64,000 nucleotides of DNA from an uncultured Flavobacteriales bacterium (GCA_937139155.1 CAKZPI010000037.1:68195-132194), one strand, 5' to 3'; shown: positions 32,158 through 37,733, counted from the first letter of the stretch. Notes: generated by a model not told the origin, from the letters alone. Numbers and translations: made by a program.

Positions 32158-32247
32158 CGAGCTAGGAGCTTTCTAATATCTAACTATAAGGTATATATTC
32201 CCGGCACAAAAAGTTATGTTCCATATACTGAAAAATCAAGAGATTGA
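32158..32247 (+). pseudogene. C-terminal remnant of a JAB-like toxin gene
   Basis: RARSFLISNYKVYIPGTKSYVPYTEKSRD* resembles the tails of ORFs 34619 and 36241; its TGA overlaps the next ATG (TGATG). Confidence 0.6.
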
Positions 32248-32927
32248 TGATATTCTACCTTCAAGTTATAGGTCTTCTTTTATGCATTTGTCCAAATTTG
32301 GCTGCCCAGCCAAACTTGGAAGTTAAAAGGGGTAAGGACTCATGTGAATTCTTGGTTTTTGATGGTCAAATTTGGGCTGCAAGAGCCTTGGAATGGGACC
32401 AGATAACCGGAAAGGATAAGATCATCAAGGCTCAGGAAGATAGTTTGTGGATTGCGGCAAATGAAAACAAACGGCCGGCATATTGCATCGCGCCAGATTC
32501 AATAACCCAATTATTTAATGGATATGCGATGCCCTACATTTATGAGAACATAAATGATAGTAGCTTAAGGGTTGCAACGCAGTATGATTTTGAAAGGCTT
32601 TGGGGGTTTGAAAGGGATTCCTTAAGAAATTATGAAGACTATGTGAGAGGGGGTGTCTTACTGTTTTCATCCGATTCATGCTCATTTTATAGGAAGGGAT
32701 TTCAGTATTATAGGGATACAACAGGTCATTATAAAATGGGTGAAATTAAAAGTGTGGATTACTGGTCAATATCCGAATATATAGAATCCTATGACCCAAT
32801 GTTTAAAAGAGATGCACCAATTTTAATCCAGGTGGTATTAAATGGATGTTGTGCGCGGCTTATTGATGAAGATATAAACCCTAATATTGGCTATCCGGTT
32901 AGGCTGATAAAAAAAAGCTCAAACTGA
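32244..32927 (+). CDS. Exported FISUMP (Fib_succ_major)-like protein 1
   Basis: Signal peptide; DGQIW, W..A.....PAYC, LFNGYA, YWS, GYPVRLIKK. Confidence 0.7.
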   Translation: MMIFYLQVIGLLLCICPNLAAQPNLEVKRGKDSCEFLVFDGQIWAARALEWDQITGKDKIIKAQEDSLWIAANENKRPAYCIAPDSITQLFNGYAMPYIYENINDSSLRVATQYDFERLWGFERDSLRNYEDYVRGGVLLFSSDSCSFYRKGFQYYRDTTGHYKMGEIKSVDYWSISEYIESYDPMFKRDAPILIQVVLNGCCARLIDEDINPNIGYPVRLIKKSSN

Positions 32928-32993
32928 CTTTTGGTTTTATTTGTCATCCGTCCTATCACCTAAGACTATGAGCTAAATCACTAAGTTTAGCCT

Positions 32994-33135
32994 GTGAATA
33001 CAAACCTAACGTATCCAGCCCAAATTTGCGGCGAAAACCTCTACAAATACGAAGCCGACTCAGGCGACTACAACTCCCCTTACCGCTTCAACGGAAAAGA
33101 TCTCGGCCCGGAAACTGGCAACTATTACTACGGAG
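32994..33135 (+). pseudogene. RHS cassette B: truncated N-terminal/core stub
   Basis: GTG start; MNTNLT...NLYKYEADSGDYNSPYRFNGKDLGPETGNYYYG, homology to 36241 ends at 33135. Confidence 0.8.
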
Positions 33136-33513
33136 TAAGCTCAAGGCCCAAAGCTACCCTTGGAAGCGGTGCAGGTCCTTCCCTTAAAGTCCTACGTGGA
33201 AAAGAACCGTCCACAGCTTTTGGAGCTGACCAGCGCAAAAAAAGACAGTCATATGCTCTTTCCGAAAGGTGAGAAGACCCGTTTTAGTTCGGTAACAGGA
33301 AGTATTTTAAAGAGGTTGAAAATCCCGCCCCATACGGGGTTGAGAAATCATACGGACATGGATAATCTGTATCAGATACGCATCAACAGGATAGCCCTTT
33401 GGCTGAATCAGTACAACCTGAGAGAAGTGCAGTACAAGGCTGGTTACAGGAGCTTGCAGAGCTTAGAGACTTTTGGCAGGGAGGCCCTGGAAGAGCTCAA
33501 AGACTGTAGATAA
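33136..33513 (+). pseudogene. C-terminal remnant of a tyrosine recombinase (XerD-like integrase)
   Basis: QIR.....WL.QYNLREVQYKAGYRSLQSLETF resembles the Bacteroidota integrase tail QIRASVI..WL..YNLRQVQY.AGH.YISSTE.Y; His and catalytic Tyr positions read Y and F; N-terminus absent. Confidence 0.65.
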
Positions 33514-33585
33514 ATACCACCCTTAGGGTGATGTGCTTAATTATTTGTATTTTTGTACCATATTGGTACACGTTAAATTAAAATT

Positions 33586-33837
33586 ATGTTGGTAATAAGC
33601 AGTCGGGAGTTCCGACAGAATCAGAAAGAATACTTTGAGCGGGTGGATAAGGGTGAACATATCATTGTCCAGCGAGGAAAGGACAAGGCATATGCCTTGA
33701 CACCTGTGAGTGCAGATGATATGTACTTCAATGCCGAGATGGTAAAACGGATCAAGCAGAGCCTGCAGGAGATAGAACAAGGGGATTACAAGGAGATAAG
33801 CAGCTCGAAAGAAATAAGTGATCTGTTAGGCTTATGA
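33586..33837 (+). CDS. yefM: Type II TA antitoxin, Phd/YefM family
   Basis: ISSREFRQNQKEYFERVD.GE.IIVQRG; overlaps the toxin start (ATGA). Confidence 0.88.
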   Translation: MLVISSREFRQNQKEYFERVDKGEHIIVQRGKDKAYALTPVSADDMYFNAEMVKRIKQSLQEIEQGDYKEISSSKEISDLLGL

Positions 33838-35488: not shown

Positions 35489-35492
35489 TGTT

Positions 35493-36140
35493 ATGAAAGG
35501 ATTATTAATTGTTCTGACCTTGTTGTTACTCCTAAGACCTGCCTTAGTCCATTCTCAGGACAATGAAGGGCATTTCCAAAGCCACTGTGATTTTGTTGAA
35601 ATCGGAGCACAGAAATGGCATGTGCAAACCCATATTGATAGCTTACTGTGCAGTTCAAGTAACTTGTTTTTGGCTCAAAGTGATAGTTCATGGAAACGAG
35701 CATCAAATGCAGGGATTGCAGCCTACTGCTTTTATCCTGATAGTCATAAAATACTCTATAATGGCTATGCTATTCGCTTGTTAATTGATTGTTCTATACG
35801 GCCAGATCTGAAAGTAGCGTCTGATTCTAATTTTCTCAATTTATTCGATTATGAGTTTGACTCTTTATATGGTAGTGGATTTAAAAGTTGGACATGGGCA
35901 GAACGATTATTATTCGCCAACAAAAATTGCACTTTTTACGATAGGGATGCATGTTTATATCGAGAACCAAATGGGCGATTTGTGAAAGATGATGCCAAGA
36001 CTATGGTTTATTGGACTTATTCTGATTTTTCGAGGGAAGACCCCTTCCTTTTTGTCCTAATTTATAATAATATTGGAAGGCTTGTCCATGAAAGAAATCC
36101 AGGCTATGGTTACTCAGTGAGGTTGATTAAAAAAGAGTAA
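35493..36140 (+). CDS. Exported FISUMP-like protein 2, putative immunity of cassette C
   Basis: Signal peptide; EIGAQKW, W..A...AYCFY, ILYNGYA, YWT, GYGYSVRLIKK; 4 bp after the toxin stop. Confidence 0.72.
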   Translation: MKGLLIVLTLLLLLRPALVHSQDNEGHFQSHCDFVEIGAQKWHVQTHIDSLLCSSSNLFLAQSDSSWKRASNAGIAAYCFYPDSHKILYNGYAIRLLIDCSIRPDLKVASDSNFLNLFDYEFDSLYGSGFKSWTWAERLLFANKNCTFYDRDACLYREPNGRFVKDDAKTMVYWTYSDFSREDPFLFVLIYNNIGRLVHERNPGYGYSVRLIKKE

Positions 36141-36240
36141 TCATATTGGTAAAGGGAAGAAGCAGTGTCCCAAATTTAAGTCCATAAATTCCCATTAAAG
36201 TTTTTTCGTATCGATTTTCTCAAATCATTAAGTTTAACCA

Positions 36241-37146
36241 GTGAATCCAAGCCTAACAAATCAAACTCAAGTTAAAGACAAAAACCTCTACGAATACAAC
36301 GCCGGCTCAGAAGACTACAACTCCCCTTACCGCTTCAATGGTAAAGAGTTAGACCCTGAGACAGGCAACTACTATTATGGAGCTAGGTACTACGACCCGA
36401 AGATAAGTGTGTGGTTATCTGTGGACCCGCTGGCGCATAAGTACCCTTCTTTAAGTCCTTATGTGTTTACTGGGAATAACCCAATTATGTTGGTGGACCC
36501 GGATGGGAGGGATATATGGGAATTGGATTTAAACGGAAATGTTTTAAATCATACCGTTGATGAGTCCCAGGATACCTTTATAGTTCTTGACAATGATGGT
36601 AATTATGTAAGTGGTATTTCTTTTGAAGGTGGGACTATTGAAGCGTATAGAAATCAGACCACATCTTTTAATGATTTTCATAGTGGAGGTAAAGAAGTTG
36701 TAGGTGATATTGACATTAATAAAATCCGGGGGGATTTTGAGTCAGAAGCCTTGTTTACTTTCATGGCTGATAATACAAATGTTGAGTGGAATGAAATAAA
36801 GACTGGGGAGTCTGGAGGCTCAGGTCTTGGGTTTTTAACAACTGGTCATAGAGAAGGCCAAAATCCGGGGCTGAACGACTTGTTAAGAGGCCAATTAATA
36901 AATGACTATACGATAAGAGAAATAAATCACAACCATCCTAAAGGTTCATCTTATCCTTCTGGTTCCTTTAATGCTGAAATTAACGGTCAAATGCTTGGTG
37001 CAGGAGAATGGGGAGATGTGAAAACCGCAGCGAATATTCAAGATTGGTACAATCGAGCATACCCTAATAGGTCAGGCATCATCGAATTCAATGTATATAC
37101 TACAAAGAATGGTTTTAAAGCATATGATAGAAATACAAGAAGGTAG
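36241..37146 (+). CDS. RHS cassette D: short N-terminus, RHS core and JAB/MPN-like toxin domain
   Basis: GTG start; DYNSPYRFNGKELDPETGNYYYGARYY...DPDG; FMADNTNVEW; HNHP-x6-S (36928 onward) ...GEWGD. Confidence 0.82.
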   Translation: MNPSLTNQTQVKDKNLYEYNAGSEDYNSPYRFNGKELDPETGNYYYGARYYDPKISVWLSVDPLAHKYPSLSPYVFTGNNPIMLVDPDGRDIWELDLNGNVLNHTVDESQDTFIVLDNDGNYVSGISFEGGTIEAYRNQTTSFNDFHSGGKEVVGDIDINKIRGDFESEALFTFMADNTNVEWNEIKTGESGGSGLGFLTTGHREGQNPGLNDLLRGQLINDYTIREINHNHPKGSSYPSGSFNAEINGQMLGAGEWGDVKTAANIQDWYNRAYPNRSGIIEFNVYTTKNGFKAYDRNTRR

Positions 37147-37151
37147 AGGTC

Positions 37152-37733
37152 ATGTACTACAGTAACATTATTATGTGCTTTCTCACTATTTCACTGCTGT
37201 TGAATCTTGATAATAAGTGTAACTATATAGTCACAGGGAGTCAAAAATGGTCAACTACGGATATCAGAGCAAAAGTGTTTAATAATGGCGATACAATTTT
37301 GTATGCCGACTCTGATAGTTTGTGGCAAAGAGCGAATCTAAAAAAGCTTCCGGCATGGTGCTATTCGAAGGATGGAAGAAGGGTTTTATATAATAGCTAT
37401 GTGGTCTCCGATAATCGATCAATTTGCCCAGAAGGATATCGGATTCCAACAAATAGAGACTGGGCATTACTTTTAAATGAGAATGGTGGGCCTAATTTAG
37501 CTCCTTCAAGATTTTTGAATACAGGCCGTGACTCGTGTTCAGAATTTTCTATCTACCCGACTGATTCAAGAAGCGTTAATGGTAGTTATGAGTTTGAAGG
37601 ATGTGCCGTTTTTTGGTCAAGTACTATGGTGAACTCGAGGTATTCTTATATTTTCATGGCTGAGGATTTAACTCTTACGTCTCAAACGCCTGATGGTACT
37701 GGGTGTGCAATAAGGCTGATTAAACGGAACTAA
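37152..37733 (+). CDS. FISUMP (Fib_succ_major) domain protein 3, putative immunity of cassette D
   Basis: Clearest copy: GSQKW...F.NGD.I..A...W..A...PAWCY...LYN.Y.V.D.R.ICPEGYRIP...DW..L ... FWSST ... G.AIRLIK; 5 bp after the toxin stop. Confidence 0.82.
   Translation: MYYSNIIMCFLTISLLLNLDNKCNYIVTGSQKWSTTDIRAKVFNNGDTILYADSDSLWQRANLKKLPAWCYSKDGRRVLYNSYVVSDNRSICPEGYRIPTNRDWALLLNENGGPNLAPSRFLNTGRDSCSEFSIYPTDSRSVNGSYEFEGCAVFWSSTMVNSRYSYIFMAEDLTLTSQTPDGTGCAIRLIKRN

Follow-up and report, generated by a model that had tools for sequence, protein, structure and literature searches.

Which protein answers to a Tox-JAB-1 toxin when the partner family that usually accompanies this toxin is missing from its locus? 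The question is raised by a stretch of 64,000 nucleotides from an uncultured Flavobacteriales bacterium (GCA_937139155.1, CAKZPI010000037.1:68195-132194), here called the window, where three genes related to the FISUMP family (PF09603, Fib_succ_major) stand between positions 32158 and 37733, each directly behind a tip, or the remnant of a tip, of a Tox-JAB-1 toxin. Toxins of this family have been described as restricted to Bacteroidetes, linked to RHS repeats and marked by an NxxxE/HxH/S/D motif (Zhang, de Souza, Anantharaman, Iyer, Aravind 2012, Biol Direct 7:18; PMC3482391). In the same work their strictly associated partner, Imm65, is an exported lipoprotein with a signal peptide, a lipobox and a YxC motif, and JAB toxins are suggested to be nucleases (PMC3482391). 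The answer favoured here, with a confidence somewhat better than even, is that in this lineage Imm65 has been replaced by a non-homologous, derived, single-domain FISUMP protein, which would act as an exported immunity protein.

FISUMP-like genes behind JAB tips

The two complete toxins of the window belong to orphan cassettes, in both of which an RHS-associated core (TIGR03696) lies directly upstream of the JAB domain. Cassette C is found at 34619..35488 on the plus strand (289 residues; PF15659 E 3.6e-7, TIGR03696 E 7.3e-15) and cassette D at 36241..37146 on the same strand (301 residues; PF15659 E 6.2e-19, TIGR03696 E 2.4e-20). Their scores against the Toxin-JAB1 model PF15659, 31 bits for 34619 and 68.7 bits for 36241, both exceed the cut-off of 21. 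The NxxxE/HxH/S/D catalytic motif is intact in both tips (ADNTNVEW, HNHP/HSHP, PSG, WGD), and the residues of the motif are invariant columns in an alignment of 11 JAB tips. The identity between the two tips is 44%.

In the third case, only the end of the toxin is left. When the window is searched with a hidden Markov model (HMM) of JAB tips, built from 46 tips of other loci with the window's own two excluded, the third-best match among 2564 six-frame pieces, behind the two complete tips, is a 29-codon frame at 32158..32247 on the plus strand. Its residues 9-28 align to the C-terminal 20 positions of the model (175-194) with E 0.012, so that the last ~20 residues of a third Tox-JAB-1 tip are kept (NYKVYIPGTKSYVPYTEKSR). 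Three JAB toxin tails had been claimed for this region in a preliminary description of it; two of them, at 34619 and 36241, are intact Tox-JAB-1 tips, and the first has shrunk to this remnant of 20-29 residues. Upstream of the partner gene at 32244 the 29-codon frame is present and a complete toxin gene is absent. The segment 32158-32927 is a deleted JAB cassette with an intact surviving partner gene.

The three partner genes lie on the plus strand at 32244..32927 (identified by BLASTP and phmmer; intact, with 227 residues from a TTG at 32244 or 226 from an ATG at 32247), at 35493..36140 (215 residues, identified by homology to the other two) and at 37152..37733 (193 residues). The TGATG overlap, the 4-bp gap and the 5-bp gap by which they had been placed directly behind the JAB tails are all confirmed. 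At the first junction the TGA at 32245-32247 overlaps the ATG at 32247 (-1 bp), at the second the TAG at 35486-35488 is separated by 4 bp from the ATG at 35493, and at the third the TAG at 37144-37146 is separated by 5 bp from the ATG at 37152. Between each JAB tip or remnant and the next cassette the FISUMP-like gene stands alone, on the same strand.

How closely the three proteins are related to the FISUMP family differs between them. The protein from 37152 matches PF09603 with E 1.1e-15 and TIGR02145 with E 2e-11, at 58.8 and 44.9 bits where the cut-offs are 33.9 and 41.65, and those from 32244 and 35493 have no Pfam or NCBIfam match at E<=0.1. When the proteins are compared with each other, BLASTP joins 32244 to 35493 with E 5e-28 (31% identity over 196 residues) and 37152 to these two with E 1e-10 and 4e-12, the pairwise identities ranging from 21 to 31%. 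A phmmer search with 32244 matches 70 of 147 PF09603 representatives, and an HMM made from 32244 and 35493 only matches 124 of 147 bona fide PF09603 representatives but none of 147 shuffled decoys. With a profile built from all three, 7405 representative proteins are recovered at E<=1e-3, and all seven that were checked are strong PF09603 proteins. From the decoy-controlled HMM and the profile matches follows that all three are members of the FISUMP superfamily, with 32244 and 35493 strongly derived. To speak of three FISUMP genes, as had been done, is therefore right in terms of homology and superfamily, while only 37152 stands above the Fib_succ_major (PF09603) threshold.

The anchors that the three proteins had been said to have in common are real, in the sense that they are invariant columns of their alignment, which contains 29 such columns and three invariant cysteines. 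The APEGW-type motif of the FISUMP family is lacking in 32244 and 35493, and the C-terminal Cys of the family (VRC.K) is replaced by Leu (VRLIK) in all three. An AlphaFold2 model of 37152, with a mean predicted local distance difference test (pLDDT) score of 87, matches phage proteins annotated as FISUMP (template modelling score 0.70, E 1e-12). Foldseek found no significant match for the 37152 model in the PDB, and sequence searches of the PDB gave no match. All three proteins begin with a hydrophobic leader, with a hydrophobicity of 2.76 in 32244 and in the form of a predicted classical signal peptide (...ALVHS/QD) in 35493. A lipobox-like motif is found in none of the three, and there is no YxC motif among their conserved columns. 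The window contains exactly three FISUMP-like frames, all in post-JAB slots, and no copy of the usual, Imm65-like, partner family of JAB toxins.

Partners of Tox-JAB-1 at other loci

What is usual for the position behind a JAB tip can be seen from 53 other Tox-JAB-1 loci, 13 from species-representative genomes and 40 from metagenome contigs, which were collected by pattern scans and confirmed by tblastn. The alignment of 11 JAB sequences was too diverse for the pattern scans, and smaller subsets of it were used. At 50 of the 53 loci the contig extends far enough to hold a further gene behind the toxin, and such a gene is present every time, on the strand of the toxin, 144-548 residues long and with its start about -38 to +64 bp from the stop of the toxin. 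A hydrophobic N-terminal segment is present in 47 of the 50 partners, some of which also carry a lipobox-like motif. The conserved following gene and the leaders together mean that the post-JAB position is a conserved slot for a partner that is predicted to be exported, in agreement with the strict association and the export signals described for Imm65 (PMC3482391).

When the 50 partners are compared by iterated HMM searches within the set, 43 of them join one family. It contains 32 distinct sequences below 80% identity, of which 31 are included in an alignment, here called A6. The proteins of this family have ~145-260 residues (for example L021:3135-3620, L008:4565-5095 and L003:3021-3551), and among them are lipobox proteins as well as the partner at the Phocaeicola coprophilus locus. 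No Pfam or NCBIfam model covers the family, and its AlphaFold2 model, with a pLDDT of 89, has no significant PDB match in Foldseek. The A6 family is probably the Imm65 of Zhang et al. 2012.

The remaining seven partners fall outside the A6 family. A second small family is formed by L019:867-1580, L058:798-1406 and L059:3120-3728 (BLASTP 2e-15 between L019 and L058), behind a distinct JAB subclade, and loci L010, L043, L055 and L057 have other partners with predicted export that belong to neither family. From the second family and the further partners follows that the immunity slot of Tox-JAB-1 has repeatedly received a new occupant.

The window proteins have no detectable relation to the family that fills most of these slots. 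Comparison of their alignment (A2) with A6 by hhalign gives a probability of 6%, over the leader only, HMM searches in both directions give no match between the window proteins and the A6 family, and the order of secondary-structure elements in the predicted topologies differs between the A6 model and the 37152 model.

The toxins themselves show no such separation. When 44 distinct JAB tips are placed in a maximum-likelihood tree, both window tips nest inside the radiation of tips that are paired with the usual partner family, which makes them ordinary Tox-JAB-1 domains with an exchanged partner. The exchange has occurred once or possibly twice: tips C and D are not recovered as sisters, and a tree in which they are forced together is not rejected by the approximately unbiased test (p-AU 0.225). 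A common AGEWGD loop was considered as a FISUMP-specific determinant of the tips and rejected, since L026, which has the usual partner, carries the same loop. The JAB tip nearest to those of the window in species-representative genomes, with 42% identity, is L001:237-1025, where a stop splits the tip between 494 and 495 and the partner gene is intact. No JAB tip was found in the plasmid collection.

A probable immunity role and its alternatives

If the FISUMP-like proteins are immunity proteins, the following course of events can be envisaged. The Rhs-JAB toxins of Bacteroidota would pass through the cell envelope or act within it; Sec would export the partner to the periplasm or the cell surface, where the partner would bind and block its cognate JAB domain. 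The tip and its FISUMP gene would have diversified as a unit, to 44% identity between tips and 21-31% between partners, and in the oldest copy the toxin would have been deleted with the protective gene left intact, as an orphan immunity gene. Neutralisation is suggested here by gene position only, and export and binding of the FISUMP-like proteins are presumed.

Several observations support the immunity reading. Reading frames, leaders and junctions are intact although the partners have diverged to such low identities, and at 32158-32927 the partner has outlived its toxin. The same retention is seen in three loci from rumen metagenome-assembled genomes (L009:3674-4810, L011:3680-4737 and L012:3695-4736), where the JAB tip is internally deleted or ends after ~50 residues and the partner is intact, with 97-99% identity to the partner of the complete locus L004; these orphan partners parallel the first cassette of the window and support the reading in the same way. 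Finally, with a FISUMP-derived protein as the sole occupant of the slot behind a JAB tip in this lineage, immunity is the most economical role for that protein.

The first alternative sees in the FISUMP-like proteins secreted proteins with an accessory or surface role, for example lectin-like binders for adhesion or targeting, which travel with the cassette and neutralise nothing. It has its basis in the known occurrence of FISUMP domains, which are normally found in multi-repeat surface proteins and lipoproteins and as ligand-binding domains in the targets of diversity-generating retroelements (DGRs) (PMC5758913); no immunity role for FISUMP is reported in the literature searched. The cassettes of the window would, however, then be devoid of an immunity gene, although a partner fills the slot at every other locus with room for one, and the retention of 32244 after loss of its toxin suits a protective gene better than a toxin helper. 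An accessory role is for these reasons regarded as unlikely.

The second alternative concerns the state of the array in which the three pairs lie. This array of orphan cassettes, each with an RHS core, a C-terminal toxin and a downstream partner gene with predicted export, extends over 30645..39621 on the plus strand, as judged from lists of open reading frames (ORFs) and from TIGR03696 matches. It is one-directional and is bordered by an ahpC-thioredoxin-DUF6952 group on one side and by an isocitrate dehydrogenase gene on the other. RHS-core (TIGR03696) matches within it are at 34619, 36241 and 37867, and an additional RHS-core fragment lies at 39295-39621. The public contig shows the same layout, and identical FISUMP-like proteins are found on four contigs, with their neighbourhood unchanged. 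Among the ORFs of the window with at least 150 residues there is no full-length Rhs gene. Cassettes A and B are fragmented (30645-31393 and 32994-33513), with their RHS-core frames split into several short ORFs, and the array is visibly decayed in part. In the broken cassette B, at 33586-34112, a pair of genes for a YefM/Phd-type antitoxin and a YoeB/ParE-type toxin (83 and 92 residues; 4-bp overlap) is inserted, with Pfam assignments as given in the gene table of the public contig.

In the two non-JAB cassettes the partner genes, at 31377-31964 and 38716-39207, also begin with hydrophobic leaders, and that of 38716 has a lipobox-like VLGC. Neither matches a Pfam family, and in Pfam/NCBIfam and HMM comparison both are unrelated to the FISUMP-like genes. 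With all three FISUMP-like frames behind JAB and unrelated partners elsewhere, the pairing is specific for the toxin type within the array, as the preliminary description maintained. Upstream of the toxin array, at 28191-30416, a gene for a LysR-type regulator is divergent from ahpC and is followed by thioredoxin and DUF6952 genes in an oxidative-stress cluster.

In such a decaying array, with cassettes A and B in fragments, the YefM/YoeB insert in place and one toxin deleted, the adjacency could be functionally meaningless: a FISUMP gene may have landed once behind a JAB tip, after which the unit was copied by segmental duplication. Such an accident would fit with a pairing that is unique to this genome and with the tree test, which does not reject one origin for both JAB tips. 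Yet in spite of the divergence of partners and tips, the three frames, the leaders, the 29 invariant columns and the tight junctions have remained intact, where neutral decay should have broken them, and the accident would in addition need the precise removal of an original gene of the Imm65 type. An accidental origin without function is accordingly thought improbable.

The possibility that nothing was replaced, because the FISUMP-like proteins are very divergent Imm65 proteins and Imm65 is itself a FISUMP relative, is the weakest of the three, and it counts against it that Zhang et al. reportedly gave no Pfam cross-reference for Imm65 though PF09603 existed. Both groups of proteins are predicted to be exported, alpha+beta and specific for Bacteroidota, and FISUMP proteins often carry lipoprotein signals (PMC5758913), but the missing profile similarity to A6 in hhalign and in the HMM searches both ways, the different predicted topology and the missing YxC motif make this explanation very improbable.

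Replacement of Imm65 by an exported FISUMP-type immunity protein has to be weighed against a number of findings that speak to its disadvantage. A FISUMP-like partner is present at none of the 50 surveyed loci, and their flanks, 234 kb in all, contain no FISUMP domain, so that the enrichment of JAB-FISUMP adjacency in other genomes, which had been expected, is absent; the proposal of FISUMP as a general partner family of JAB toxins is not supported, and the other loci leave it the standing of a local substitute. Typical FISUMP proteins are large multi-repeat surface proteins without toxin context. The leader of 37152 has no basic n-region and no clear cleavage site. The orphan cassettes, with no full-length Rhs in the window, may be silent. 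The pairing possibly traces to one ancestral fusion of neighbours, and the searches gave no close relative for any of the three proteins, so that the co-occurrence rests on one lineage.

How rare these proteins are is illustrated by the searches made for them. When 35493, 37152 and the profile of all three sequences were used in word-indexed searches of 5.8 billion clusters, the matches were the window's own proteins and two weak FISUMP proteins, with no close relative among them, and 35493 as query recovered only itself. A full HMMER search of 1.84 billion representative proteins gave no close relative, only generic multi-repeat FISUMP proteins, the top score after the window's own being 194 bits spread across 8 repeats. 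No relative was confirmed by two pattern scans over 185,579 species genomes, there was no toxin context around the two weak single-domain FISUMP relatives, and a scan with the neighbouring isocitrate dehydrogenase gene for a syntenic relative found no genome above 70% identity.

The three pairs had also been read as a case of co-diversification. What stands of this is that a same-strand partner varies together with its tip; three independent events are not borne out, as the test of tip origin given above does not reject a single one, and all of the pairs may go back to a common ancestral event. It is the single lineage, the possibly single origin and an immunity role deduced from position that keep the confidence in the replacement by a FISUMP protein only a little above even.

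One step further leads to the site of toxin action. There are leaders in every partner family, which argues for a meeting of toxin and inhibitor in the periplasm or at the surface and sits uneasily with a nuclease role. A FISUMP domain, lectin-like and of the DGR-target type, might have been taken into service as an evolvable inhibitor that blocks a JAB metallo-enzyme toxin in the periplasm or at the surface, the first molecular role that would be assigned to the family, with Tox-JAB-1 acting in the envelope rather than as a nuclease; this extended proposal is tentative and, taken as a whole, rather doubtful. As speculation, the JAB domain could be an isopeptidase with an envelope substrate, such as an isopeptide-type bond of peptidoglycan or of a lipoprotein anchor.

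Comparison with known systems

What is new here is a local substitute for Imm65; JAB toxins already had a known partner, the finding sets up no general rule that joins JAB with FISUMP, and it does not yet give FISUMP a function. Should the FISUMP-like proteins neutralise the JAB tips, one immunity family would here have been cleanly displaced by a non-homologous one, while the toxin domain stayed the same. FISUMP, a widespread domain of unknown function, would then gain its first functional handle, and there would be further evidence for envelope action of Tox-JAB-1. The reach of the result is limited to one uncultured lineage, and it is already established that several immunity families may serve one family of toxins. 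The survey also defines the usual partner family, with 43 loci, a place outside Pfam and NCBIfam and a confident predicted fold without a solved relative.

Orphan immunity genes and acquired interbacterial defence clusters were reportedly described in Bacteroidales by Ross et al. in 2019. Such genes resemble 32244 in that an intact gene in immunity position is kept without a working cognate toxin, and differ in that 32244 stays in its original cassette, behind a toxin stump of 20 residues, and not in a recombinase-associated island.

The literature searched contains no report of FISUMP beside Tox-JAB-1, no later mention of Tox-JAB-1 or Imm65, and no FISUMP function beyond DGR targets and surface proteins. 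The pairing is in this sense undescribed, as had been supposed, but for Tox-JAB-1 an exported partner was already known in the form of Imm65 (PMC3482391). When the window is set beside the Tox-JAB-1/Imm65 system, the toxin domain PF15659 with its motif, the RHS core, in the window that of orphan cassettes, the occurrence in Bacteroidota, for the window judged from relatives, and a partner immediately downstream with an export signal, here a predicted one, are the same. The difference lies in the partner, which in the window belongs to the FISUMP family, has no detectable relation in sequence or predicted fold to the family found at 43 of 50 loci and, compared with Imm65, is devoid of lipobox and YxC motif.

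The pairs of Tox-JAB-2 (DUF4329) with Imm-NTF2-2, an immunity protein of NTF2 fold (Zhang et al. 2012), are similar to those of the window in that a tip of the JAB superfamily is combined with a small dedicated partner, and differ from them in the JAB clade and in the NTF2 fold of the immunity protein.

FISUMP domains, grouped with DUF1566/Lcl_C, also occur as ligand-binding variable domains of DGR targets, often with a lipoprotein signal (Wu et al. 2018, PMC5758913). With the FISUMP proteins of PF09603 and TIGR02145 the window proteins have in common a homologous domain and the predicted fold; hydrophobic leaders and conserved cysteines are present, though the C-terminal Cys of the family is not among these. 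They differ from them in being single-domain proteins of ~200 residues instead of multi-repeat proteins, in that two of the three score under the family thresholds, and in their context, which is that of a polymorphic-toxin cassette, previously unreported for the FISUMP family.

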